From assembly GCA_964419165.1 (NCBI GenBank), contig CAYQOL010000001.1, forward strand, positions 1 through 62,089: a stretch of 62,089 bases of DNA, read 5' to 3'. This DNA is from an uncultured Candidatus Saccharimonas sp. GTDB lineage: Bacteria; Patescibacteriota; Saccharimonadia; Saccharimonadales; Saccharimonadaceae. Shown one piece after another: positions 13,895 to 58,878 of this stretch. Within the stretch, counting starts at the first letter, position 1, and each line of letters begins with the position of its first letter. Below the pieces are notes generated by a model. The model was given only the letters and a program-made list of their open reading frames with translations, ran no database searches and was not told the DNA's origin. The position numbers and the translations under genes are program-made.

Positions 13895-13923
13895 TTGACA
13901 ACAGATGAGTACTTTGGTAGAAT
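13895..13923 (+). promoter_or_regulatory. sigma-70-type promoter for rplJ-rplL
   Basis: TTGACA (13895..13900), 17-nt spacer, then TAGAAT (13918..13923) preceded by TGG (extended -10). Confidence 0.55.
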
Positions 13924-14125
13924 ACTTCGAGACATCACCAAAGACAGTAGCCGTGCTTAGCACTTAATTAGCTACCGAGGATTATGTAAAATCTACATTT
14001 TTCGATAATTAGTCTTTGGCAGTGCGAGATTCAAAGACTTTTTTTGTTTCTTGTTCTGCCGCTTCGCCGTACGGCGAATGTCTGAGTATTAACAATCCGG
14101 TCGGACAATTAATAAACTAAAGGAG
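13924..14125 (+). promoter_or_regulatory. rplJ (L10) leader with attenuator-type hairpin
   Basis: A ~200-nt untranslated leader. AGTCTTTG...CAAAGACT (14011..14039) is followed by T7 (14040..14046), upstream of the SD AAAGGAG. Confidence 0.4.
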
Positions 14126-14132
14126 AATTTTT

Positions 14133-14660
14133 ATGGCAATTACACGCGATAAAAAGAATACTTTGGTTACGGAATTAACTGATTTATTCGCAAGTTCCAA
14201 AGGCTCGGTAGGTGCAGCCTATACAGGCCTCAGCGTCGCCGAGATGCAAGTACTTCGTGCTGAAGCCAGGAACGCAGGTGTTACTATCAAGGTCGTCAAA
14301 AACCGTTTAGTACGCGTTGCACTATCTGGCAACGACAAGTTCAAATCAGCTGACACCAGCCTACTGACAGGTCAGTTGGTCTATGCTTTTTCGTCAGAAG
14401 ACGAAGTCGCTCCAGCCCAAGTTTTGGCAAAATTTGCCAAAAAGCATCCTCAATTGAAACTGGTCGTCGGTTTTGACGATGCCGGCTCGTCACTTGACAC
14501 CGCCACCGTCACGGCTTTGGCCGAACTGCCAACCAAAGATCAATTGCGCGGGCAACTGGTCAGCGTCATCGCTGCACCACTTTCAGGTTTCCTGGGAGTT
14601 GCGAATGGTGCCCAACGCGGTTTTGCGCAAGTATTATCACAACGCGCCGAATCATTATAA
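14133..14660 (+). CDS. rplJ: 50S ribosomal protein L10
   Basis: The length, position upstream of rplL, and the V.EM..LR......G...KVVKN.L pattern all fit L10. Confidence 0.93.
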   Translation: MAITRDKKNTLVTELTDLFASSKGSVGAAYTGLSVAEMQVLRAEARNAGVTIKVVKNRLVRVALSGNDKFKSADTSLLTGQLVYAFSSEDEVAPAQVLAKFAKKHPQLKLVVGFDDAGSSLDTATVTALAELPTKDQLRGQLVSVIAAPLSGFLGVANGAQRGFAQVLSQRAESL

Positions 14661-14711: not shown

Positions 14712-15113
14712 ATGGCTGAAAATGAAATCAAGCTATCTGCTGCTCAAAGCAAAATCGTTGATGAACTCAACAAACTGTCGGCTCTCGAATTGAGCCAAAT
14801 CGTGAAACACCTCGAAAACGAGTGGGGAGTCAGCGCTGCTGCCCCTGCCGTAGCCGTTGCTGCTGCGCCAGCTGGCGAAGCTGCTCCTGCCGATGAAGCT
14901 AAGTCTGAATACACCGTCAACCTCAAGGATGCCGGCGCACAAAAAGTAGCCGTTATCAAGGCTGTCAAAGAAATCACCGGACTTGGCCTTGGTGAAGCCA
15001 AAGCAATCGTAGACAGCGTGCCTTCGACCGTCAAAGAAAAGGTCAACAAAGAGGACGCCGAATCTGCCAAAAAAATGCTCGAAGAAGCCGGCGCAACCGT
15101 CGAATTAGTCTAA
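14712..15113 (+). CDS. rplL: 50S ribosomal protein L7/L12
   Basis: Ala/Pro-rich hinge and the C-terminal [38 protein letters not shown]. Confidence 0.95.
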
Positions 15114-27207: not shown

Positions 27208-28596
27208 ATGAATGTAGTTACGCGAGGCATAAAAAATGCCGTTCGCAGCCCTCTAAGATCAGGAGCAATAATCCTGATGCTCGCCATCAGTATAGGCTTG
27301 GTACTATGTATGCTGGTAGCTAGGGGTAGTGTTAATGCTAAGATCGAAGAAGTCAAGTCATCGTCTGGCAATAACATTACGATTAATCCTGCAGGAGTTA
27401 GAGGTTTTGCGGGTGGAGGTAATTACCTAACATCAGAAATATTATCTAAGGTTCAAGATGCCGATCATATTTCAGGTATCGTATCGACATTGAGCGATCA
27501 AATGAGTACGGACGATACGAATTTATCTTCATCACTTGAACTTGGAGATTTTGGACAGAGGCAACAAAGACCCGATAGTAGTTCTAGTTCAACAGACGAC
27601 TCGAACTCAAACAATACGGATGATACCGACGAGACCGATTTAAATATCTCAAGCGAAAATATGCCTACGCCCACGCCTAGAATCACCGTGACCGGAACGA
27701 CCAACCCTGATTCCGTTTCGTCCGATGGCAGCGATCTGAATATAACCGAAGGAAAAACCTTCGACGATTCAAATACGGAATTGGTCGCATTGATAGGCGC
27801 GGATTTAGCCGAAGAAAACAACTTGTCTGTTGGTGATAGTTTTACTGCATACGATAACACAATAATCGTAATTGGTATTTATGAAACAGGAAATACTTTC
27901 GAAGACAGTAATATAATTATGCCCCTAGCGACCCTACAAGGTCTAATAGATGAGGACGGATCCGTCAGTAGTATTACCGCGACGGTTGATAGCAACGACA
28001 ACGTAAAGTCAGTCGTAACGGCACTAAATTCTTCGCTCGGAGACGATGTCGATATCACGAGCGATATCGAGAGGGCAGAAAATACGGTTTCTTCGCTAAA
28101 AAGTATCGCGTCTCTGGCTTTGGCTGGTGTATTTGGCGCAACTATTGCAGGCGCGGTAATTGTCTTGCTCGCGATGGTTATGATCGTACGTGAAAGAAGG
28201 CGTGAAATTGGGGTCATTAAGGCTATTGGCGGCACGAACCGCAAAGTAATCGGACAATTCGTGACCGAATCATTAACTTTGACGATAATTGGCGCTATTA
28301 TCGGCTTGTCGCTCGGCGTAATCGTCAGCGGTCCGATGACAACATCGCTCGTAAGTAGCAGTTCAAATAGCTCGTCCCAAAAAAGCCAGGACGGTCCCGT
28401 CGGAGGACCAGGCGGAATGATGCGAGAAAGTATGCAGCAAATCGGTAATAATTTCACGCAGGTCACCGCCAGTCTGACTCCCCAGATATTCGCCTCGGCC
28501 GTCGGGATGACATTATTAATAGCAATCATTGGTAGCGCTTTACCGGCTTGGTTTATTGCGCGAATCCGTCCAGCGGAAGTATTAAGAACTGAATAG
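27208..28596 (+). CDS. FtsX-like ABC transporter permease with a long extracytoplasmic domain
   Basis: N-terminal TM, a ~280-aa extracellular region with S/D/T/N-rich low-complexity stretches, and a C-terminal FtsX 3-TM bundle (RRREIGV.KA.G). Confidence 0.75.
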   Translation: MNVVTRGIKNAVRSPLRSGAIILMLAISIGLVLCMLVARGSVNAKIEEVKSSSGNNITINPAGVRGFAGGGNYLTSEILSKVQDADHISGIVSTLSDQMSTDDTNLSSSLELGDFGQRQQRPDSSSSSTDDSNSNNTDDTDETDLNISSENMPTPTPRITVTGTTNPDSVSSDGSDLNITEGKTFDDSNTELVALIGADLAEENNLSVGDSFTAYDNTIIVIGIYETGNTFEDSNIIMPLATLQGLIDEDGSVSSITATVDSNDNVKSVVTALNSSLGDDVDITSDIERAENTVSSLKSIASLALAGVFGATIAGAVIVLLAMVMIVRERRREIGVIKAIGGTNRKVIGQFVTESLTLTIIGAIIGLSLGVIVSGPMTTSLVSSSSNSSSQKSQDGPVGGPGGMMRESMQQIGNNFTQVTASLTPQIFASAVGMTLLIAIIGSALPAWFIARIRPAEVLRTE

Positions 28597-28604
28597 GAGG
28601 AAAT

Positions 28605-29276
28605 ATGCTGGTAGTAAAAAATCTTACGAAAACTTATTCAAGCCCCAGTGGCGATGTCACGGCTCTCAATAATATCAGTCTGAGTGTCAATACGGGCGAA
28701 TTCGCAAGCATAATCGGTAAATCCGGTAGCGGTAAAAGTACTTTGTTAAGTATGTTGGGCGCCTTGGACATTCCATCAAGTGGCAGTGTCGAAGTCGACG
28801 GAGTGGATATTTCCAAAATGTCCGCAAGTAAACAGACTACTTATCGTGCTAAAAAAATCGGTTTTATTTTTCAATATTACAATCTTATTCCAAACTTGTC
28901 GGCATTAGAAAACGTTATGCTAGCACTAGAATTCGGCGGCATACCAAACAAGAAACGTAAAGAAAAAGCCGTAGAATTACTTAAAGACGTCGGCATAAAA
29001 CCCGACGAACAACTCAGGAAACCATCACGACTTAGTGGTGGTCAACAACAGCGCGTCGCGATTGCCAGAGCCCTTGCTAACGAACCCGCCATCATACTTG
29101 CTGACGAACCGACCGGCAATCTGGACAGCGAAACCGGAAAGAAAATCTTTGATCTACTTCACAGCTTGTCCCGCAGTAAAAATACGACAATCCTAGCCGT
29201 AACTCATGATATGGACATAGCAGGCAGGACCGACGTAACTTTCAAGCTCAAAGACGGCAAATTAACTAGCGATTGA
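28605..29276 (+). CDS. ABC transporter ATP-binding protein (MacB/LolD type)
   Basis: Walker [10 protein letters not shown], signature [15 protein letters not shown] and Walker [12 protein letters not shown]. Confidence 0.9.
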
Positions 29277-34422: not shown

Positions 34423-35508
34423 ATGAATTTGAAACACTGGTTTCTACCTAACAGAATGAATAAATTTCACCCGGTTGCACTCAGACCGGTCGGTTTGCTG
34501 ATATTTTTGGCTATTTTTGTCGCGATAGCACCCGTTTATAACATTATTACCGCTGGCAAACCTCAAGTATTAGGCTACGCTACGAACATAAACGTCGGTG
34601 ATTTGTTTAATATTAGTAATCAAGAGAGGATAAATAACGGACTGCCGGCTCTGAGCTTAAACACGCAACTTTCTAGCGCGGCACTTGCAAAAGCCAATGA
34701 TATGTTTGCCGACAACTACTGGGCCCATGTCGCACCGGACGGTACCACGCCTTGGTCTTTTATTCTAGCTAGTGGATACGATTACACTTCAGCGGGTGAA
34801 AACTTAGCTAAAGATTTCAGCACCTCAGCAGGAGTCGTCAATGGTTGGATGGGTAGCCCCAGCCATAGGGCAAACGTGTTAAATTCGAGTTACGCTGACG
34901 TAGGCTATGCCGTCGTAAACGGAGTACTGCTCGGATCAGAAACGACGTTAGTGGTAGCAGAGTACGGTCAACCAGTACAACAGACGGTCGCATCGACCAC
35001 GCCAGCTTCGGAGGAACAACCACTGGCTCCACAAGAGCAGCAAGAATCGGCACCGACTTATTCCCAACCGCAAGAACCTAGCCCTTCGTCGGTCCAAGAC
35101 GAATCATCACAAACCGAGTCACAAACTCAAACTGAAACCGTAGCCTTAACAGAAATCAATACGAACACCGAATCATCCGATACGACAATCACCGAAACCC
35201 CGAAGAACGAACCGATATCCACAAAAACCAAAGATAAAAATATCGCCACGGACACGGCTGCCGTATTAGGAGCGGTAATATCAGTACCGCTGACTAAATA
35301 TATTTCTCTTAACTGGGGTCAAAAAGCATCGTTACTATTGGCAAGTACGATAATACTGCTATTCATTATGAAACATACTTTGGTATGGCGTGAACAAAAA
35401 AGGGGAATCAAAAATGTCTGGTTACGGGCTCATCCGCTAGGTCAGGTAGCTGTACTAGTCGTTGCAATTATCATTACTTTAGCTAACGGGATAGGAGTAG
35501 TGCTATGA
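34423..35508 (+). CDS. CAP/SCP (YkwD-like) domain protein with a low-complexity linker and C-terminal TM segments
   Basis: N-terminal TM. CAP motifs (L..AA.AKA.DM....YW.H....G..PW; GEN.A; W..S..HR.N.L). Q/E/S/T/P-rich spacer. Confidence 0.8.
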   Translation: MNLKHWFLPNRMNKFHPVALRPVGLLIFLAIFVAIAPVYNIITAGKPQVLGYATNINVGDLFNISNQERINNGLPALSLNTQLSSAALAKANDMFADNYWAHVAPDGTTPWSFILASGYDYTSAGENLAKDFSTSAGVVNGWMGSPSHRANVLNSSYADVGYAVVNGVLLGSETTLVVAEYGQPVQQTVASTTPASEEQPLAPQEQQESAPTYSQPQEPSPSSVQDESSQTESQTQTETVALTEINTNTESSDTTITETPKNEPISTKTKDKNIATDTAAVLGAVISVPLTKYISLNWGQKASLLLASTIILLFIMKHTLVWREQKRGIKNVWLRAHPLGQVAVLVVAIIITLANGIGVVL

Positions 35509-35759
35509 AAAGAAAACATTACAGATCACTCAAGATACACACTATCTATAATGTCATTATCTCTATCACTTTCGTCGTAGTAATCTTATTGGAACGCGAC
35601 GCCTCACTACTAGCAGCGACGGTATTTTTATTGTTTTATCTAGCAGGCAACGGGATAATTCACACCAACAAAAACAAACTGGATCACGATACGCTGATAG
35701 AATATATACTCTTATCAGGAATTGCTCTACTGTTACTTTTCAATGCACTAGTTAGATAG
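35505..35759 (+). CDS. small membrane protein (84 aa)
   Basis: ATGA overlap with the CAP gene. Three hydrophobic segments. Confidence 0.4.
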   Translation: MKRKHYRSLKIHTIYNVIISITFVVVILLERDASLLAATVFLLFYLAGNGIIHTNKNKLDHDTLIEYILLSGIALLLLFNALVR

Positions 35760-36818
35760 GTCAGTTTCGTATTTTGGTCCAAACGGCGAAAATAACAATT
35801 TCACGAATCCTAAAATATATACCATAACTTCAAACATCAGACCTATCGGCGCAATAAGCACCAGATTGATATTATCAATCAATGAGTACCCTTTTATCCG
35901 TACCTGTATGAATACACCGATTAAAATATAGATAAAAACAATAAACAACACCGCCACTAATAAATCGTAAGGTTTAAGAAATATCGTCGAAGCGACCACT
36001 ATACCTATCATAACGACGAACATAACGATACCAACCCTATTCTTCATACTATTCATAGCTTTATCGATTTTGTAGTTCAAATAGTCAAGCATTTTATTAA
36101 CGACGATTTTTTTGTAAATATAAATCTGAGTACAAACATTCAATCTGACTGGTTTTTCATTAAAAGCGTCACTTAGGATTGCTTCCCTAGAATATATTAC
36201 TCCCGAACGTAGCGGCGCAAGCACCGTCTTTACACCGAACAGTCGAGCTTTTAATTGGCGTAAAATAACGAAATGCGCCTGGAATAGACTAGAGAGCGTA
36301 TTGTTCAATTTAATCTGATGATTAGGTAAAATAACACCAATTCCGTCTGCCTTTAGTGCCTCGACTGAAACCGCCTCGAAAAAGTCTTTCGACAGTCTGT
36401 CGCTATCGTTCAAGACAATAATCAATTGGCTCGATAAATATCGACGTAACATACTTTTGATGGTCGTGTTTTTCGATCGGTTCAAAATCCTAATATTACC
36501 CAGACGATTTTCACCTATATATTCGGCGACCTGCATACGGGATGCTTTGTCAGTAGCTTTATCGGCGACGATTACGATTTTCAATTTATCATAATCGAAT
36601 CCGCGCAGATGTCCAATAAACTCAACCATCGATTCAGCAGAGCCATCCAATTCAACGATAACGCCGATGGATTTTTCGCACTGCTTTTTTGCAATTACTA
36701 TCAACCGGCGCTGCAAATCTTTCATATGACCAATTTCTTTATTATCAACAAACACTTCCATAACGACGAATAAAACTAATGATATCGCAGCAATTATTGA
36801 GATTAAGGTTAACGTCAT
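35748..36818 (-). CDS. membrane protein with GT2-like glycosyltransferase domain (tentative)
   Basis: N-terminal TM, a cytoplasmic domain with LNDSD (DxD-like), and C-terminal TMs. Overlaps the sortase stop by 4 nt. Confidence 0.45.
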   Translation of the reverse strand: MTLTLISIIAAISLVLFVVMEVFVDNKEIGHMKDLQRRLIVIAKKQCEKSIGVIVELDGSAESMVEFIGHLRGFDYDKLKIVIVADKATDKASRMQVAEYIGENRLGNIRILNRSKNTTIKSMLRRYLSSQLIIVLNDSDRLSKDFFEAVSVEALKADGIGVILPNHQIKLNNTLSSLFQAHFVILRQLKARLFGVKTVLAPLRSGVIYSREAILSDAFNEKPVRLNVCTQIYIYKKIVVNKMLDYLNYKIDKAMNSMKNRVGIVMFVVMIGIVVASTIFLKPYDLLVAVLFIVFIYILIGVFIQVRIKGYSLIDNINLVLIAPIGLMFEVMVYILGFVKLLFSPFGPKYETDLSN

Positions 36819-37435
36819 TTTGCCTCCTTTAAATCAAAGAACATTAAGCGACGAGTCAAACTCCAAACGCCTTCACACGTCATTATTGTCAGTCGTGGCG
36901 TGTCTGGGTCTTCGCGCAGAATACTTGTATAATTCGGCTTGACCGACAAATCACCAGTGTATAAATAAGTGAAAGTATGCCCGTTTTTGGTTGTAATCGT
37001 AACCTCATCACCAACGACCAAATATGTCAATTTTCCTATCACCGAATCGCGATTATGACCATAGATAAATGTGTTGCCACGTTGATTGTTCGGCAAAGCC
37101 GTACCGTAACCGAAATATATTGCATCGTCTGAGGTTGTCCAATCGTCGGTATTAGTGTCATAGTAACCATATTTTATTGGCAAATTAATACCCAACCTTT
37201 GCATCGTGAATGTCTGCGGTTCACCGTCTATGATTACTTTTGTAACGATATTTCCGTAATTGATATTTTTCTTGACGTAAACAATCCCAGACGGAACCAT
37301 AATGATTTCATCTTGGCGATTAATCGTAGCTGCGGCATAACAACCTAGTAACACCAACCAGCCAACAATCACGTACAAAGATACCACCCTTAGAAAGAGT
37401 GGCATCCTTGCCGTAATGTTACGATTTATTTGCAT
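36815..37435 (-). CDS. sortase-family transpeptidase
   Basis: N-terminal TM, IYGHNR (catalytic His), LTIMTCEG (TLxTC Cys motif) and a downstream Arg. Confidence 0.8.
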   Translation of the reverse strand: MQINRNITARMPLFLRVVSLYVIVGWLVLLGCYAAATINRQDEIIMVPSGIVYVKKNINYGNIVTKVIIDGEPQTFTMQRLGINLPIKYGYYDTNTDDWTTSDDAIYFGYGTALPNNQRGNTFIYGHNRDSVIGKLTYLVVGDEVTITTKNGHTFTYLYTGDLSVKPNYTSILREDPDTPRLTIMTCEGVWSLTRRLMFFDLKEAK

Positions 37436-37449
37436 ATTTTAGTTATTTA

Positions 37450-38532
37450 TTAAAGCTGTCTAACCAGTGCACCCCTAATGATCGCACCAATGATAGTTAT
37501 TGACACAGCAACTAACGATATAACCGCAACACCCGCAGCCGTAGAATCACCGCTGGTGTTCGCAAGGGTTGTAGCGCCCAATACACTGCCTTTTCCCGGC
37601 TCACAGTTCGTAGGAGCCTCGAATTCATAAACCCATTGATTAGGAGTATTTTCTTTGAGCGTATAGTCCTCATTTGCCGGAACCGCGTCTATCGTAATCG
37701 TGGTGCCGTTCGGAATCGAGGAGTATGTACCGGCAGCTACGACTTTACTACCGATTTTGTATTTAACACCAGTCGTCGTAGGTATGATGTATGAACCAAG
37801 CACATCACAAGTCGACGCTATTAAGGTCGGGGGTGTCGCGGTAACACTTGTAGCACCTTGCGTCTGACCACATTCTTCCTCGGTAGGGAATGTAAAGACG
37901 TGAGACCACGAAATCGTGCCTTTGAGTATATATCCGCCCAAAGCTTTTGCAGTAACAGTTATTTCCTTATCTTCAGTTATCGGATAGGTCCCAGCTGCCG
38001 TGGGGTTCTTTTCATCATTCACATAATATTCCACGCCATCTTTAGCTGGTATCGTGTACGAACCGTCTGTTTCACATGTCGGGTCGACGAACGATATAGC
38101 CGTCGGAGTTACCTCTGTATCGTTTACATATTGGCAATCATTTGCAAACATTGCTTGGCCTTTCGTATCCCAGTTCAAGCCGTTAAAATGTTCATCATCG
38201 CCATAGTCAAAAGGAGGGATAATATCACCCCACTTTTCATCATTATCCTTCATATCTTGAGCAATCACTTCATTATAGGCAATATCTCCGGTATGCTCCG
38301 AATGACCCTTGGCTTCATCGCCAACCTTTTTGTCATCACCCTTAAATATTGAATCGACACTTACTTCTATTGCACTTGGTCCGTAAGGTTTTTTTACGTT
38401 ATTATCGCGATGACAGATTGTTACCTATTCAACTTTTACTTTTTTTGCGCCAGTTGGCTGTGATTGGATAAACGCAGCGAAGCTCGCGAATACTAGCACC
38501 ATTGATGCAAGAATTGATAATTTTTTATTCAT
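37450..38532 (-). CDS. sortase-substrate-like surface protein interrupted by one in-frame TAG (codon 36): readthrough candidate or pseudogene
   Basis: ATG 38532 with SD GGAAGGAG and a TTGACA-17-CATAAT promoter. Signal peptide MNKKLSILASMVLVFASFAAFIQSQPTGA. TAG at 38427..38425. The same frame stays open for 52 more codons into the track ORF 37450..38268. C-terminal LANTSG, hydrophobic helix and R-rich tail. Confidence 0.6.
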
Positions 38533-38814
38533 TATAGTTACTCCTTCCATACTATTATCCGGATTATGTAAATATTATGGTAGTTATTAGCTTTATTGTC
38601 AATAGTATAATATAGTTCGTACTTAACCCAAGAGATTCAGTCGAGCTTTACAAAATAGATTTACCGTTTTGTCTTTTTGGATGGTTTTCATGTTTTACAT
38701 TCAATCCTCCTTCTCGACTATTAAATTGTAAGTATATTATAGCACATTTTTCAGAATTCAACTACCAATCCATCTTAATTAAAATTTAAGAAACGACATT
38801 TCATATTTTTTTGA

Positions 38815-39579
38815 TTACGGTCTAAGCGTACCTGCAAAGACTTGCCAAGCGAGAAGTGATTTGGCAACCAAACTTAGTACAATATAGGTAAGTTCGCCAT
38901 ACAGGTAATCTTTCCATTTGCCGATTTTTTTATACTGCAAAACCATATTGATAGCGAAACAGTTGAAGAATACGAATATCGAGACAAATATCCAATAAAC
39001 AAAGTCTGGTGCTTTACTGCCGTTAGCCGCGCCTAACCACATATATATTGCTATAACCACCCAAGGAATTGCGCCAGCAAAACAGCCTACCCAAAAACTT
39101 AGCCAATTAGTCTTTTTCGTTGTTTGATTGTGAATCTCCATCACTAGACCCATCAAATTCATAACGACGGTCAGTGAAAATATCATCACCAAGCTCGCTA
39201 GATCATAAATACCGACAAGCAATGATATAGCAACCATCATAACGCTTGCCGAAACAGAATACTCTATCCAGCGCGCTTTGTTCAAACCCTTCTTTAAATC
39301 GCTTTCATACTCCTTGTTATATACCGTCGCGATTAGCAGGTGAGCTACAGCCGATAGAAAAAAGAATGCCGCAATCAGTATCGGCAAGGACAAATTTAAA
39401 AGATTAGTCGTTGTAGGCTCTAGGTTCTGTGTAATCGGATTATACTTCAAATAACTGCCGCTAATTGGCAAATCATAAATCCTGCTTAAAAAAACAATGG
39501 CGCAACCTTGCGCCAGATGAAAGAATGCCATTACTAGATTGAACTTTCGCAAACCGCTGAACGTAATTTGCTTGCTCAT
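38815..39579 (-). CDS. heliorhodopsin
   Basis: 254 aa, 7 TM. FHLAQG (His21), AHLL (His80), RWIEYSVSASVM (Glu106), FWVGCFAGAIPW and GELTYIVLSLVAKSLLAWQVF (Lys240). From memory, these align almost residue-for-residue with HeR 48C12 H23/H80/E107/K241. Confidence 0.9.
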   Translation of the reverse strand: MSKQITFSGLRKFNLVMAFFHLAQGCAIVFLSRIYDLPISGSYLKYNPITQNLEPTTTNLLNLSLPILIAAFFFLSAVAHLLIATVYNKEYESDLKKGLNKARWIEYSVSASVMMVAISLLVGIYDLASLVMIFSLTVVMNLMGLVMEIHNQTTKKTNWLSFWVGCFAGAIPWVVIAIYMWLGAANGSKAPDFVYWIFVSIFVFFNCFAINMVLQYKKIGKWKDYLYGELTYIVLSLVAKSLLAWQVFAGTLRP

Positions 39580-39585
39580 ACTTCG

Positions 39586-39594
39586 ATTATAGCA
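39586..39594 (-). promoter_or_regulatory. extended -10 promoter giving a leaderless heliorhodopsin mRNA
   Basis: Minus strand reads TGCTATAAT, then 6 nt (CGAAGT), then ATG 39579. There is no SD. Confidence 0.5.
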
Positions 39595-39674
39595 CTTAAA
39601 CTATTAAACCCAAAGTTCCTCGGACGCTGTCCCGTCGGACGTCACCCGCGGCAAATGGATTCTAGATATTAACA

Positions 39675-40415
39675 TTACTGCCTATCTTGTCTATGAATCG
39701 TGATTGAACCCAATATCAGCGCCAATACGACGAATCCGGCGATAATCAGAAAATCGTTGGTCATTTCCGATGTCCTTTCCGCGTATTTCGTAACTTGCTG
39801 CATCGCATCGACGCTGTAAGTGAGGGGCATAATATTCGCAAACCATTGCAGTGGTTCGGCCATATTCTCACGAGGCAAAAACAGTCCGCAAGTAAGTAGT
39901 TGTGGAAATATAAATGCCGGCATAAATTGAACAGCCTGAAACTCGCTGCCTGCAAAAGCACTCAAAAACAACCCGAGCGCCGTCCCCAACGAAGCGGCCA
40001 AAACAGCACCGATAAGTGTCGGCACAATGCCGCCGGCGACATCAACGCCAAGAACACTAAACATTACAACACCGGTAATAATCGCTTGCAGAAAACCGAT
40101 AATACAAAAAACTATCGCGTATCCGAAAACAAAATCCAGTTTAGATATAGGCATCGTCATTAATCTGTCGAGCGTACCGCTAGTACGTTCTCGCAAGGTA
40201 ACAATTGAAGTTATCAAAAACATCATTATCATCGGAAAGACACCTAGTAGCATCGGCGCGATATTATCGAATACCATGGGTTGATCATCAAAAACGTATT
40301 TTAAAACCGTCAAAAGGATAGGCGGCACCACGAACAGCAGCACTAAAGTGCGCGGATCGTGAAGCAATTGGTTCATTACTCGTTTCGAGGTTGCAATAGT
40401 TTTTCGCGGGCTCAT
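39675..40415 (-). CDS. ABC-2 type transporter permease
   Basis: 246 aa, 6 TM, with the typical ABC-2 layout. ATGA-type overlap with the ATPase gene. Confidence 0.85.
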   Translation of the reverse strand: MSPRKTIATSKRVMNQLLHDPRTLVLLFVVPPILLTVLKYVFDDQPMVFDNIAPMLLGVFPMIMMFLITSIVTLRERTSGTLDRLMTMPISKLDFVFGYAIVFCIIGFLQAIITGVVMFSVLGVDVAGGIVPTLIGAVLAASLGTALGLFLSAFAGSEFQAVQFMPAFIFPQLLTCGLFLPRENMAEPLQWFANIMPLTYSVDAMQQVTKYAERTSEMTNDFLIIAGFVVLALILGSITIHRQDRQ

Positions 40416-41143
40416 TCTTTGCCTCCTACGAGTTTCAAGAAACTTTCTTCGATGGTTTTGGATTTTGTTACTTTCAATATCTCAGCAGGGGAATCGTGAG
40501 CGATAATTTCGCCGTCTCTTATAAGAATCAGGTCATCGCACCTTTCGGCTTCGTCCATAGAGTGACTGGTTACTATTATAGTAACCCCTTGTTTTGATAA
40601 ATGATTAAAAAGTTTCCAAAGTCGGTCGCGCAACACCGGGTCCAAACCGACCGTCGGTTCATCCAGAACTAGCAGCTCGGGCGAACCAAGTAAAGCGACT
40701 GCCAGCGAAACCCGCTGTTTTTGTCCAGTTGACAGATTACTGACTAGATTCTTGGATTTATTGGTGAGCTCGACAGCTCTTAGTACGTCATCGACAATCC
40801 TAGAAATCTCATTTTTCGGGCAACCCGTCATAACCGCGAAATATCCAAGGTTCTCTATTACGGTCAAGTCCGAATATATCGATAGTTCTTGGGTCATATA
40901 ACCGATTCTATCCCTAAGGTTTGCCGAGCCGGCTAGTTCGCCAAAAACGATAATTTCACCTTCAGAAAAATGCAGCCTACCGACGATACTGCGAATCAGA
41001 GTAGTCTTGCCCGCACCTGACGGCCCAATAACACCAGTTATTTTACCAGACGGTAATTTGACACTGACGCTCTTTAGGGCCCTAAAACCTTTACCCAAGG
41101 TAACTGATAATTTTGAAACGCTTATCGCGGCTGGCATATACAA
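40412..41143 (-). CDS. ABC transporter ATP-binding protein (DrrA/CcmA-like)
   Basis: Walker A GPSGAGKTT, signature LSTGQKQRVSLA and Walker B LVLDEPTVGLD. Confidence 0.9.
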   Translation of the reverse strand: MYMPAAISVSKLSVTLGKGFRALKSVSVKLPSGKITGVIGPSGAGKTTLIRSIVGRLHFSEGEIIVFGELAGSANLRDRIGYMTQELSIYSDLTVIENLGYFAVMTGCPKNEISRIVDDVLRAVELTNKSKNLVSNLSTGQKQRVSLAVALLGSPELLVLDEPTVGLDPVLRDRLWKLFNHLSKQGVTIIVTSHSMDEAERCDDLILIRDGEIIAHDSPAEILKVTKSKTIEESFLKLVGGKE

Positions 41144-41207
41144 TTATCATACCAGAGATTATGGACAAAATATCCAGAAGAGTTATAATTATTTCATTAA
41201 CAAACAA

Positions 41208-41338
41208 ATACTGGAATCCGGTGTAAATCCGGAACTGTGCCGCAACGGTAAGGCTATTCAGCCAAGTCCGAGACAGTGTAAATCTCCCGAGCAGGAGTAG
41301 TTATATTTCGCGATATTTCCTCTGCTTGGGCGCAGGGG
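41208..41338 (+). promoter_or_regulatory. cobalamin (B12) riboswitch-like aptamer plus SD-sequestering expression platform
   Basis: Core GGAAUCCGGUGUAAAUCCGGAACUGUGCCGCAACGGUAAGG and B12-box-like GCCAAGUCCGAGACAGUG. Closing helix AUACUG (41208..41213) / CAGUGU (41274..41279). Alternative pairings of CCUCUGCUUGGG (41319..41330) follow. Promoter TGGACA-16-TATAAT at 41162..41189. Confidence 0.7.
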
Positions 41339-41350
41339 TATTTTAAATTA

Positions 41351-42781
41351 ATGTTACAAACGTCGAGATTGGAAACGATCCATAATCATCCGGAAATTCC
41401 AAGCGGGGAGCGCACCGTTTATCTGGGCAGATTAGCTATCAAATCGGAGTATCTAGGTATTAACGATCCGTTGACGCATCTGCATCAGTACATAGAAAGA
41501 GGCGATTCAGCGTTGGTAGGTATAAAAATGGACATTGAAACCGACATCGCCGAAAGGTTACCAAGAACTCCTTTCGTCAATTACGTCGGTTTTAATTATG
41601 ACGGTAACGATTTTCTTTCCGAGAGAGACAAGGTGTCGATGGCAAAGATGGCTTCAACGAATTTGAAAATATTCAAAGAAGAAAAAGATCAAAACCCCAT
41701 CCTAATAGACGAATATAGGCGCGCTAAATTGGAATCACTTGAGGTTCATAAATTAACCAGCTGGTTCCCAAAAGCTCCGATCGGTTCGTGCCTGATTTTT
41801 GAATCACTTCCGATAGGCGATCAAAAATTTGCGATTTCAAGAATATACCGCAAGTTAGGAAACAACAAAATTGAGGGTTGTTTCGTGTCACTTTACGGCT
41901 CTAGTGTCGAAAGATTTAACGAATTTCGCAAAGCACTTTGTGTCGAAACACCGGTATGCGAGAACGAATACGATATATTAAGCAATCATTATGAATTTTA
42001 TGCGCCGGAAATAAAATCCAAGGAAGATTTCGTAAATTTTTACTTAGGCCTTTACGACCATCTAATGAATGAGTCTGATGGAAGAGATTATTGTTTTGGT
42101 ATTGAGACTAATAAGTATCAACAAAAAATAAACGGCCTCGAAAAAGTCCGCAAGCAACCGAAACTATCAGCTATATATTTGGATACTGTCAGAGCGCTAG
42201 CCGAAAGCAACGGGATAATCACGCCCAAACTTATCGAAATAAACAATAAATTAAAGCTAGGTTATCAAATCAGTGAAAAATCCGAATTCGACAAGGATTT
42301 TGCAAAAAACATTTTAAGCGACGTCATAGCCGGAATCACCAGTGTAATTGACAGAGCCAACAGCGACTTGCTTGACGGTCTCGAAAGTTACGACATCACC
42401 CAGGACGCCAGCTACGAAGCGGTTTCATTTTACAATGGGCAGGCGAGGGCCACCGGCGAACGATACGAAAGTAACGGCTGTCCTGAATACGACAGACAAT
42501 CACAGACAGTATCTATTGACGATTCCACAAACGAAGAATCAATTATAAAGAAAGCTTTTGATATTAATGGAAATGAATTGAAAAATTTTGGCAAACCAAA
42601 AATTGGGCTGTGCCGGATAATGAATTGTCCTTCGCGCGGCGAAATTAATTGGCTTCCACAAAAAACACTCGTAGGCGGCTGTGATATTTGCGTCTGCTGC
42701 CATAGGCTTTTTGAACAGGGTAGGTCGCCTAAATCCGTATATAACAAAGCAAAATCGCCAAAACCCCGCAAAGCAGCTTGA
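41351..42781 (+). CDS. hypothetical cytoplasmic protein (476 aa) with C-terminal Cys cluster
   Basis: Long clean ORF with no TM or signal peptide. C-terminal CRIMNCPSRG...GGCDICVCCH looks like a zinc-ribbon. No family recognised. Confidence 0.6.
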   Translation: MLQTSRLETIHNHPEIPSGERTVYLGRLAIKSEYLGINDPLTHLHQYIERGDSALVGIKMDIETDIAERLPRTPFVNYVGFNYDGNDFLSERDKVSMAKMASTNLKIFKEEKDQNPILIDEYRRAKLESLEVHKLTSWFPKAPIGSCLIFESLPIGDQKFAISRIYRKLGNNKIEGCFVSLYGSSVERFNEFRKALCVETPVCENEYDILSNHYEFYAPEIKSKEDFVNFYLGLYDHLMNESDGRDYCFGIETNKYQQKINGLEKVRKQPKLSAIYLDTVRALAESNGIITPKLIEINNKLKLGYQISEKSEFDKDFAKNILSDVIAGITSVIDRANSDLLDGLESYDITQDASYEAVSFYNGQARATGERYESNGCPEYDRQSQTVSIDDSTNEESIIKKAFDINGNELKNFGKPKIGLCRIMNCPSRGEINWLPQKTLVGGCDICVCCHRLFEQGRSPKSVYNKAKSPKPRKAA

Positions 42782-55539: not shown

Positions 55540-56307
55540 TTATTCTTGGGAATGTGTTATACGTTTTCGCAAAAAAACCTGCACTATTAGTGCAGCCTGA
55601 TGGATTTCGGGCCTTACGGCGGTATTCGAGCCATTCGTCACGTTAAAACTTACCGACGAATAGCCTTCGGCATTACACCAATATCCCGGCACTGAGTAAG
55701 CGTAGACCTCCCATGTGTATGCGCCGTTTTGCACGTTGTCTTTCGAAAAAGACCACTTTCCAGCATTATTGGTCATCTCACCGATGACTTCGCCTTGTCG
55801 GCTAACGATTGTGGCATGATTTACTGTTCCCCACGAAATATTCGAAATAGCAACTGTAACTTTCGCACCGTTGACGGATGCGTTCACGTCAAAATATGGC
55901 GTGGGAACGGCGGTATAGTCCACATTACCGTTAATAACTGCCAGACAATATGATTTACTGACAGTTTTGGCAATCAACTCGTCCGCGGACGAAAAAGCAA
56001 CTAACTGGATATTGTGCGCTCCACTGGATGGCAGCGGTACTCCGTATATTAATCCAACAGGCGTCGGATTCATTTTTCCGACAAGTACGCCATCCTCGAT
56101 TACATTGATATGGTCAACATTCGCCGTATACAATGTACGACATTCGGCAACACCATCCTTCGCAAATACAAAGGCGGAGAACTCCGGTACACAGTTAATC
56201 TAGAACAGTATATCATCACCGCCCGCATATGCGGGATTCACCAATACGACGGGGGAACAAAACACTAGGATAAACGACAGAACGACAAGAAACAACCTCT
56301 TCTTCAC
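55540..56307 (-). CDS. secreted beta-rich protein interrupted by one in-frame TAG (codon 36): readthrough candidate or pseudogene
   Basis: GTG 56307 with SD AGGAAAG. Signal peptide MKKRLFLVVLSFILVFCSPVVLVNPAYA. TAG at 56202..56200. The same frame continues for 22 codons into the track ORF 55540..56133, which starts at TTG and has no signal peptide of its own. Confidence 0.55.
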
Positions 56308-56421
56308 AAGACCACTTCTTTCCTAATCCAAATTTTTAATTTATAGCTTTGCAGCTATTCTTTTTGCCAAAGTAGAAAAAATATTTTATTATTATACAAT
56401 AAATAATATCATTTTTCAATA

Positions 56422-57021: not shown

Positions 57022-57108
57022 CAGTTTGTTTACTTATAATAATTTTAACATAACGATGTAACTTATAGTCCGGTGGATATGCCGTTTATTTTTATAGTAA
57101 ATTGAAAA

Positions 57109-58878
57109 TTAGCTTATATTAGCGACGTTTAATCGTTTTAAAAATTTAATTTTATTTTTTGCGATTATAAAATCAGCAACAAGAATTAACAAAATAATCA
57201 AATTGAACCTTATAGCTTTATCTAGCAGGAAAGGCCCTGCAAAAATTCTTATCATATGAATTTTATTATTTAATTCGTTTTTGGCAACTTGCTCTAATGT
57301 TTTGACTTCAATTTTTTCTATATCAATATTTTCGTTTGCAGTTACTTTCAGGTAATTAACGTCGTCACCGTCAGACACCGTACCGCCAAGGGCACCCGTG
57401 TTAACGAATTTAGTACCGTCGATTTCGTAACTTCCGGAAATGTGGGTATGAGCTCCAAAAAAGACGTCGACATCATTTTCGGTCAATATTTTTACTAATC
57501 TCTCGCTATTAATTTTGTCAAAAAGACTTAGACGCAACTCTTCGTTTGGATAAGCATTATCATCATAAATACCATTTACGGGATTTAATGGCGGAATGTG
57601 ACTGAAAACGAATTTATACCTTGCATCGGCAGAATCAAGGATATCACCTAACCATTCGAATTGCTGATTACTAATCAAGCCTCTACTAGAATCCAGCATC
57701 ACAAACAAACAATCCTTATAAGTAAAGCTGTTATTTAGCGGTCCGAAATAATCACGGTAATATTTTTCTCCAGACTGCCACAGCTCGTGGTTACCAATAG
57801 TTGTATATATTGGCACTGTGCTCATCTCTGTCATTCCGCCAGTAACCACATATTCAGGTTTAACACCGTAGTTAACGATATCGCCATTCAAAATTATAAA
57901 ATCGGGGTTTTCCTTTATCATTTTGACTAATTCCGGAAAATAAACACTGGAACCGGAATGTAGATCGGAAGCTACAAAAAATTTTAGTGGCCCTTCTGTT
58001 TCAACTGATGATATTTTTATTTGGTTTTTACCTTTACTTAATGAAGTGTCGGCCCAAATTCCTTTTCTAGAGCCTGTGTAGTCTTTGGAATAGACAGCCT
58101 CGTCTTCGATAAGAGTGTCGTTTTCAATGTTAAGTCGTAGTGATTCTCCGGAAAGATACGGGTGAACAACTACCGGTTTATTGTTGATACCAATATCGTA
58201 GTGAATCGGCGTATTTAAAATATTTAATCGCAGTTTCGTTTCAATTTTGGAATCAAAAGTAATTGACGCATCTGGAGCAATCTGTTTAATTATTAACTCC
58301 TCAGGTTGATCAAAAGAAGCGCCACTAACTCTGTAAACGAAGCCCCCTTTGATATTTAAGGAATATTGATCATTTTCATAGCTGGTATTACCTGATTGAT
58401 CAGGGGATATCACCATATCCAAATTGCTTTCAATCGGTATAAAACATATTATTACGGCCAAGATACTAATAATAAAAAGGGTTGGAGAATCTTGTTTTAA
58501 TGCGGTTTTTATTGAACGTCTTTCGATTCTTGGTTGCTCGCGTTTTATTAATATCAATGCAGCTATCCAAAACAGACCAAAAAATACTATGGCAGGATTA
58601 ATCAATATTTTTGGTTCGACCAGCCAATAACTGAATAACATAAACAAACCAACCGAGCAAAACCACTTAACAAACAGGGTGAAATATTTTTCGTAAAAGA
58701 ACCCGACAATTCCTACAGCAAGCCCAATCAGGCCAGTTAAAGTACCTGCAATGGCAACAAAAAGATATGAATTACCGTGTTCAAAGTTATCGTAATTAAC
58801 TAATATCAGCAATAAACCGATGATTATCGAAATAATTGTGATGACTTTTAATGGTTTGATCTTGTTTATTTGTATCAT
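57109..58878 (-). CDS. membrane-bound calcineurin-like metallophosphoesterase
   Basis: N-terminal multi-TM region. Ectodomain with DLHSG, GDIVNYG, GNHE and GAHTH motifs. C-terminal TM. Confidence 0.75.
   Translation of the reverse strand: MIQINKIKPLKVITIISIIIGLLLILVNYDNFEHGNSYLFVAIAGTLTGLIGLAVGIVGFFYEKYFTLFVKWFCSVGLFMLFSYWLVEPKILINPAIVFFGLFWIAALILIKREQPRIERRSIKTALKQDSPTLFIISILAVIICFIPIESNLDMVISPDQSGNTSYENDQYSLNIKGGFVYRVSGASFDQPEELIIKQIAPDASITFDSKIETKLRLNILNTPIHYDIGINNKPVVVHPYLSGESLRLNIENDTLIEDEAVYSKDYTGSRKGIWADTSLSKGKNQIKISSVETEGPLKFFVASDLHSGSSVYFPELVKMIKENPDFIILNGDIVNYGVKPEYVVTGGMTEMSTVPIYTTIGNHELWQSGEKYYRDYFGPLNNSFTYKDCLFVMLDSSRGLISNQQFEWLGDILDSADARYKFVFSHIPPLNPVNGIYDDNAYPNEELRLSLFDKINSERLVKILTENDVDVFFGAHTHISGSYEIDGTKFVNTGALGGTVSDGDDVNYLKVTANENIDIEKIEVKTLEQVAKNELNNKIHMIRIFAGPFLLDKAIRFNLIILLILVADFIIAKNKIKFLKRLNVANIS

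Follow-up and report, generated by a model that had tools for sequence, protein, structure and literature searches.

We have studied two genes of secreted proteins, each interrupted by an in-frame amber codon (TAG), in a contig of 62,089 nucleotides (nt) from an uncultured Candidatus Saccharimonas species. The whole of this stretch, of about 40% G+C, is referred to as the window, and all coordinates and codon numbers below are given within it. Gene 1 corresponds to a surface protein with a C-terminal sorting signal and lies beside a sortase gene; gene 2 corresponds to a secreted protein of Ig-like repeats. In both, the TAG stands at codon 36. The features of gene 1, with the adjoining sortase, are as follows; L numbers denote loci in other assemblies, P numbers denote proteins, and lengths of open reading frames (ORFs) and proteins are given in amino acids (aa).

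38574..38602, minus strand: sigma-70-like promoter, TTGACA-17-CATAAT, matching at 11/12 positions; near-identical in the relative L001
38532..38530, minus strand: ATG start of gene 1 (minus-strand reading)
38425..38532, minus strand: 5′ fragment of gene 1 (minus-strand reading), a 35-codon signal peptide ending at the TAG; a separate 41-aa ORF in the gene calls of L003 and L004
38425..38427, minus strand: premature TAG at codon 36; AAG (Lys) in relatives, hence an A-to-T substitution
37450..38424, minus strand: remainder of gene 1, with an N-terminal 'VTICHR..NPY..WGDIIPP' domain, two Ig/FN3-like beta-sandwich domains, the sorting signal LANTSG, a transmembrane helix and a basic tail
36815..37435, minus strand: intact sortase gene (PF04203, 60 bits against a cutoff of 26.6), 14 nt downstream of gene 1

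A Shine-Dalgarno sequence, AGGAG, is found 8 nt 5′ of the ATG. The peptide encoded before the TAG, MNKKLSILASMVLVFASFAAFIQSQPTGAKKVKVE, has the n-h-c layout of a signal peptide. Judged by eye it is of the Sec type, with MNKK, a hydrophobic core of 18 residues and then QSQPTGA, and cleavage is likely after TGA near residue 29. It is kept in all intact homologues, and in the window allele the TAG divides it from the mature protein. Beyond the TAG the frame runs for 324 codons without a stop, to the TAA at 37450. The protein ends in LANTSG, DSTAAGVAVISLVAVSITIIGAII and RGALVRQL, i.e., a sorting signal with its hydrophobic helix and basic tail, and a scan of the window found no second sorting signal. 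Some gene callers place the start at an ATG 18 nt (six codons) upstream, in which case the TAG becomes codon 42.

The gene 1 protein has no match in Pfam or NCBIfam. In an AlphaFold model of an intact allele (mean predicted local distance difference test score, pLDDT, of 82), two domains are beta-sandwiches and residues 331-359 form a terminal helix. Foldseek related this model to the tandem FN3/Ig modules of adhesion molecules and to the GhpA grappling-hook protein; the TM-scores were low, as expected for flexible, multi-domain chains. With a signal peptide, a sorting signal and an adjoining sortase all present, the ancestral form of gene 1 is predicted to be a sortase-dependent, cell-wall-anchored surface protein.

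The original prediction made for this locus is well borne out to this point. It had placed ATG 38532 behind a Shine-Dalgarno sequence and a promoter, and had put the TAG at codon 36 (38427..38425) of a frame that is open beyond it; rereading the sequence gave the same. It had also taken the 52 codons free of stops between the TAG and a GTG at 38268 to be coding, and these prove to be the most conserved stretch of the gene 1 family, holding C40, H41, P49, Y50 and WGDIIP. Lastly, it had used the sorting signal and the neighboring sortase to join the two halves into one secreted sortase substrate split by the TAG, and full-length relatives do exist.

The intact gene 1 proteins P0001, P0093 and P0095, of 360-366 aa, are 97% identical to the readthrough translation of the window allele, and all have Lys36. 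At the level of DNA the intact alleles (n = 4) are 97-98% identical and have AAG at codon 36, with the window one base away. The original prediction had suggested an alignment of orthologs as a check on readthrough, and this goes against it: the column holds a sense codon (AAG in L001, L013, L014, L015 and L005; mostly Lys across 21 diverse homologues), and TAG is found only in the window, L003 and L004. The homologous loci examined in other species number 80, one of them an ambiguous, repeat-internal case; their frame is open before [KV]TICH, following either the signal peptide or a longer N-terminal region, and none has a stop in the codon-36 column. Given AAG and other sense codons in the relatives, the stop is therefore not a conserved feature of gene 1. 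All the invariant residues of the family (C40, H41, P49, Y50, H80 and WGDIIP) lie 3′ of codon 36.

The same TAG recurs in two further metagenomic runs, as assembled in Logan, the contigs of which are automatic assemblies and may mix strains. L004 (SRR8925824) is identical to the window over 3298/3298 nt; L003 (SRR29243425) differs at one synonymous site in gene 1 and by a cluster of 28 differences at 34889..35633. In both, ORFs of 41 and 267 aa are called separately at gene 1. Since these contigs are nearly identical to the window, the TAG is an allele of one clone that has been sampled repeatedly. Apart from the TAG itself, this lineage has two non-synonymous and three to four synonymous changes in gene 1; so few changes indicate that the mutation is recent, and the count is too small to judge selection since it occurred.

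A different lesion is found in L005 (SRR27460158). This locus keeps AAG at codon 36; however, a 7-bp tandem duplication (CTAAAGA) shifts the gene 1 frame near codon 163. The repeated CTAAAGA CTAAAGA lies at 860-880 of L005 and leaves gene 1 as ORFs of 171 and 210 aa. This frameshift is a second, independent disabling allele of gene 1.

The second interrupted gene has the following features.

56391..56419, minus strand: promoter-like site, TTGAAA-17-TATAAT, matching at 11/12 positions
56200..56307, minus strand: 5′ fragment of gene 2, from a GTG start at 56307; a signal peptide (cleaved between AYA and GG) plus 7 residues, ending at the TAG
56200..56202, minus strand: premature TAG at codon 36; TCG (Ser) in relatives, hence a C-to-A substitution
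55540..56199, minus strand: remainder of gene 2, a secreted Ig-like repeat protein, truncated at its 3′ end; sub-threshold Big_13 Pfam match
55579..55595, minus strand: terminator hairpin, CTGCACTAATAGTGCAG followed by a T run, now within the reading frame; in L007 the hairpin follows the native TAA

The peptide before the gene 2 TAG is MKKRLFLVVLSFILVFCSPVVLVNPAYAGGDDILF, in which the signal peptide MKKRLFLVVLSFILVFCSPVVLVNPAYA is followed, after a cleavage site judged by eye, by GGDDILF. The frame is then open to 55540. Gene 2 has no NCBIfam match, and an exact look-up of the window product from an internal ATG returned no record. Intact gene 2 is 426 aa long (P0098; seven contigs, L007-L012), and a relative of 56% identity, P0092, is 433 aa long. 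The window, L002, L006 and L016 share a deletion of 578 bp with its junction at about 55603..55606, with the loss of ~195 C-terminal codons together with the native stop; the ~20 codons that now end the frame were formerly intergenic DNA. It is because this deletion removed the 3′ end that the frame crosses its own terminator.

At codon 36 of gene 2, TCG is present in L002 and L007-L012, and P0092 also has Ser; TAG is present in the window, L016 (SRR24057994) and L006 (SRR27460159). We used L007 as the outgroup to polarize the substitutions, the counts of which are small. The TAG lineage has gained 8 non-synonymous and 4 synonymous changes, as neutrality would allow (p = 0.50); for the intact branches the counts are 5 and 11, and neutrality is rejected (p = 0.0002). 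The stem leading to the window and L016 has 6 to 1, compared with the 5 to 11 of the intact branches (Fisher p = 0.027). From its 578-bp deletion and relaxed constraint, gene 2 is seen to be decaying.

The gene 2 TAG stands within a cluster of derived changes at 56190-56208 (minus strand), with P34L (CCG to CTG), S36* (TCG to TAG) and G39C (GGT to TGT) falling within six codons; the window, L016 and L006 have all three. The cluster could have arisen in one multi-base mutation event or as an imported patch. Mutagenesis of the diversity-generating retroelement type was considered and dropped, no test dedicated to it being made: the changes are C-to-T, C-to-A and G-to-T, and so are not adenine-specific.

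The two TAG alleles do not travel together. The assembly of SRR27460159 has AAG in gene 1 and TAG in gene 2, and that of SRR27460158 has the frameshifted gene 1 and TCG in gene 2, so that the alleles segregate independently among strains. The native contexts of the two TAGs are GAATAGGTA and TTCTAGATT. The ancestral residues are Lys in one case and Ser in the other, and therefore no single recoded amino acid is implied. From either AAG or TCG a single substitution can create a stop only as TAG. Over both genes, 36-45% of the possible single-base nonsense mutations give TAG, and two TAGs would therefore be expected by chance with a probability of ~0.16. A six-frame scan of the 62 kb for pairs of ORFs that could be joined across a single stop revealed no further convincing case of an interrupted gene, frameshifted genes not having been searched for systematically. 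The original prediction had noted the same pattern in gene 2 at 55540..56307. The TAG at codon 36 is indeed there; the shared codon number depends on the choice of start and looks coincidental.

TAG functions as an ordinary stop in this genome, as had been stated in advance. Among 61 long ORFs the stops are TAA in 36, TGA in 15 and TAG in 10 (16%), and in the TAG-ended FKBP, DHFR, ThyA and FtsX the last position of the Pfam profile falls within a few residues of the stop, marking these as natural ends. An alternative genetic code with TAG as a sense codon is ruled out by the same observations, i.e., 10/61 ORFs ending in TAG and profiles finishing just before it. No tRNA with a CUA anticodon occurs in the 62-kb window, where the single tRNA is tRNA-Gln(CUG). 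The RNA structure predicted for stretches of 100 nt, each beginning 10 nt ahead of its TAG, is no better than that of shuffled sequence (z = 0.01 for gene 1, −1.29 for gene 2). The TAG is followed by G in gene 1 and by A in gene 2; at readthrough sites C is reported to be the most frequent base after the stop (PMC9122581).

The conclusion that emerges, to which we give a probability of about 85%, is that both TAGs are ordinary loss-of-function nonsense alleles segregating in the natural population of one species of Saccharimonadaceae (Saccharibacteria/TM7). Directly observed are the substitutions, which close relatives and other species lack but which recur in independent assemblies, the gene 2 lesion with its relaxed constraint, and TAG serving elsewhere as a normal stop. 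Of the possibilities raised in the original prediction, a recent nonsense pseudogene or a strain-variable site thus has the data behind it, with AAG and TCG in the relatives, alleles that segregate, the deletion in gene 2 and the frameshift in L005.

The likely course of events is then as follows. In gene 1, a single A-to-T substitution converted Lys36 from AAG to TAG in a sortase-anchored Ig-repeat surface protein. In gene 2, the 578-bp deletion came first, removing ~195 C-terminal codons, and the C-to-A change of Ser36 from TCG to TAG followed. The gene 1 allele is recent, and that of gene 2 is older, lying on an already shortened gene. Translation would most likely halt at the TAG, leaving a signal peptide with 6-8 further residues. 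The downstream domains would not be made or, if translation restarted internally, would lack a signal peptide and be unable to reach the sortase. By inference, full-length protein is not produced in any useful amount. The recurrence of independent lesions in both genes hints that the loss of these exposed proteins is tolerated or even favored in a host-dependent bacterium, e.g., through recognition by phage, host or partner.

Several points weigh against this interpretation and should be set beside it. Only two interrupted genes were seen among 61 ORFs, and both encode secreted proteins, with TAG in each and at codon 36 in each; a match this exact in position is improbable a priori (~1 in 100-300), but its recognition was post hoc and the codon number varies with the start chosen. 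Gene 1 has no other sign of decay, so function via leaky readthrough is possible there. Three distinguishable backgrounds (the window, L016 and L006) carry the gene 2 TAG haplotype. It is possible for a null allele to persist or to spread by recombination, but such persistence would also fit a retained low-level function. L006 joins the TAG haplotype to a downstream part resembling L002, and is either a recombinant or a chimeric metagenome contig. Lastly, the check for a suppressor tRNA covered 62 kb of the genome only.

Of the other explanations, leaky or programmed readthrough survives best. The TAG would act as a throttle, past which a few of the ribosomes, in a proportion that might depend on conditions, insert an amino acid and go on to complete the secreted protein (a 'pseudo-pseudogene'). 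Precedents have been reported in the low-level UAG readthrough of Salmonella pseudogenes (PMC9122581) and in conserved in-frame stops of bacteria with a ratio of non-synonymous to synonymous substitution rates (dN/dS) below 1 (PMC7918605). Gene 1 is otherwise intact, with its promoter, Shine-Dalgarno sequence and sorting signal, and TAG alleles are present in several samples. However, the stop is missing from the intact haplotypes of close relatives and from the 80 loci from other species, the ancestral residues differ (Lys, Ser), and the gene 2 TAG lineage is neutral and carries a large deletion. TAG terminates 16% of ORFs at natural ends, no tRNA-CUA is found in the window, there is no structured element downstream, and the next base is G (gene 1) or A (gene 2), not C. 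We consider readthrough of this kind unlikely, and on the same evidence there is no support for the suggestion in the original prediction that a programmed amber gates the surface protein. That prediction had also pointed to further lesions in orthologs as evidence against programmed readthrough, and such lesions are present as the deletion in gene 2 and the frameshift in L005. A narrower form confines the throttle to gene 1, with low readthrough through near-cognate decoding or a suppressor tRNA elsewhere in the genome or in a phage; a milder variant has the repeated knockouts of both exposed proteins positively selected, e.g., by way of phage or partner recognition. These we judge very unlikely.

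The TAGs might instead be artefacts of sequencing, assembly or consensus, carried by no real cell. The window is a contig of a metagenome-assembled genome (MAG), Logan assemblies can mix strains, and L006 looks mosaic. Yet the same gene 1 TAG is present in the assemblies of two other runs with unrelated accession ranges, the gene 2 TAG is present in two further runs on distinguishable haplotypes, and both are clean substitutions rather than homopolymer errors. As both alleles occur in independent assemblies, they are not sequencing errors, and an artefact of any kind is most improbable.

Classical phase variation, i.e., a rapidly reversible on/off switch at the TAG sites as the original prediction had allowed, might be favored by the character of surface-protein genes as typical contingency loci, by the coexistence of on and off alleles in the sister samples SRR27460158 and SRR27460159, and by the slippage-type 7-bp duplication in L005, but it is hardly credible when both TAGs are single-base substitutions in unique, non-repetitive sequence, no simple repeat or invertible segment is seen at either site (no dedicated repeat search was made), and the alleles lie on distinguishable haplotypes, with no flipping within one background.

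Homologues of gene 1, of 240-630 aa, are found in Saccharibacteria, other Patescibacteria, Actinomycetota, Chloroflexota and Dormibacterota. Their layout is a signal peptide followed by a conserved N-terminal domain beginning K-V-T-I-C-H-R, then one to several 'TC(D/E)xxGSYTIP' repeats and an LPxT(S/G)G signal with hydrophobic helix and basic tail. The 'KVTICHR..NPY..H.G..WGDIIPP' domain (window 38020-38424, minus strand; loci L017-L096) has no Pfam or NCBIfam model, and yet it is widespread in secreted proteins of Saccharibacteria, Actinomycetota, Chloroflexota and Dormibacterota; it therefore constitutes an undescribed domain family. The sorting motif is LANTSG (window 37540-37557, minus strand) in the clade of the window, and LPxTSG or LPxTGG in more distant homologues (P0002-P0012). 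Annotated homologues include one, from a Candidatus Saccharimonadaceae MAG (MDD3035897.1), that is near-identical to gene 1. A scan of GTDB species representatives with a 4-sequence alignment found no close relative, the best having 45% identity, and the species of the window therefore appears to be absent from that collection. A search of the literature on Saccharibacteria sortase substrates or nonsense polymorphisms found nothing specific.

The sortase at 36815..37435 fits none of the NCBIfam sortase classes, with scores of ~16-30 bits where the cutoffs are 140-166. LAXTG is a known substrate motif of class E sortases (PMC8225981). The order of genes around gene 1 is the same in relatives, and the operon has a further conserved member.

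35748..36818, minus strand: multi-pass membrane protein of 356 aa, conserved operon partner, overlapping the sortase stop and ending in TAG

This gene is also present in L001, L003, L004, L005 and L013, and its product has no family match in Pfam or NCBIfam. Directly upstream of the surface-protein/sortase operon lies a full-length heliorhodopsin gene (38815-39579, minus strand; PF18761, E = 5e-100), and this arrangement is conserved in the relatives L001, L013, L014 and L015.

Strains at 95-98% DNA identity differ in gene content at three places in the window, ~39592-40840, ~27241-29004 and ~57043-58877. At the first, L001, L013, L014 and L015 lack an ABC-2 permease and most of its ATPase, a remnant of 100 aa being left. 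At the second, L001 lacks a MacB/FtsX permease region, with a remnant of 92 aa. At the third, L002, L006 and L007 lack a 589-aa metallophosphoesterase membrane protein. Between the window and L003, 28/29 differences fall within 34889-35633, most of them at 35407-35633, which comprises the C-terminal membrane part of a CAP-domain protein and a small ORF at 35505-35759. The segment 34889-35633 could be a recombination patch or a hypervariable segment.

Two regulatory RNA elements were found elsewhere in the window. A cobalamin riboswitch at 41166-41297 (plus strand; RF00174, 41 bits against a gathering score of 31.5) precedes an ORF of 476 aa at 41351-42781. Behind a B12 riboswitch, and in a reduced genome, such an ORF would be an unusual cargo. 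The other element, a ribosomal protein L10 leader at 13920-14054 (plus strand; RF00557, 68 bits), is followed by ORFs at 14133-14660 and 14712-15113, presumably rplJ and rplL, in what is an ordinary arrangement.

These results carry a caution: an in-frame stop just after a signal peptide, even when it occurs twice at the same codon number, need not mean recoding, and here it was the comparison of near-identical strains that settled the question. Within one species (95-99% DNA identity) two exposed proteins have been hit repeatedly, gene 1 by a TAG and a 7-bp duplication, and gene 2 by a 578-bp deletion and a TAG. Together with the insertion or deletion of whole genes, these lesions fit an ongoing remodeling of the surface and reductive evolution in host-dependent, ultrasmall bacteria, and they make both proteins candidates for a role in interactions or as receptors. 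The stretches 37450..38268 and 55540..56133 should be annotated as pseudogene fragments rather than as hypothetical proteins.

How do these genes compare with known systems? With the sortase-dependent LPXTG/LAXTG proteins of Gram-positive bacteria (PMC8225981), gene 1 shares the signal peptide, the C-terminal L-[PA]-x-T motif with hydrophobic helix and basic tail, the adjacent sortase gene and an Ig/FN3-like stalk. It differs from them in its LANTSG motif, in a sortase of no defined class and in an N-terminal KVTICHR/WGDIIPP domain that has no Pfam or NCBIfam model; in the window allele, moreover, the protein is severed from its signal peptide. The pseudo-pseudogenes of Salmonella (PMC9122581) and the conserved in-frame stops (PMC7918605) resemble the present cases in having an in-frame UAG with the mRNA signals intact, from which a trace of full-length product is conceivable. 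The stops described here are, by contrast, not conserved, the TAG lineage of gene 2 does not have dN/dS below 1, the next base is G or A, and the cases are known from sequence alone. The closest likeness is to the nonsense pseudogenes of bacteria and the strain-specific null alleles of surface genes. The present examples differ from these in that the host is an uncultivated member of the Saccharimonadaceae and that the gene 1 allele is very young, without further decay; they share with them the single-base stop, the intact alleles in close relatives, the exposed, secreted nature of the proteins and, in gene 2, the further lesions and relaxed constraint.

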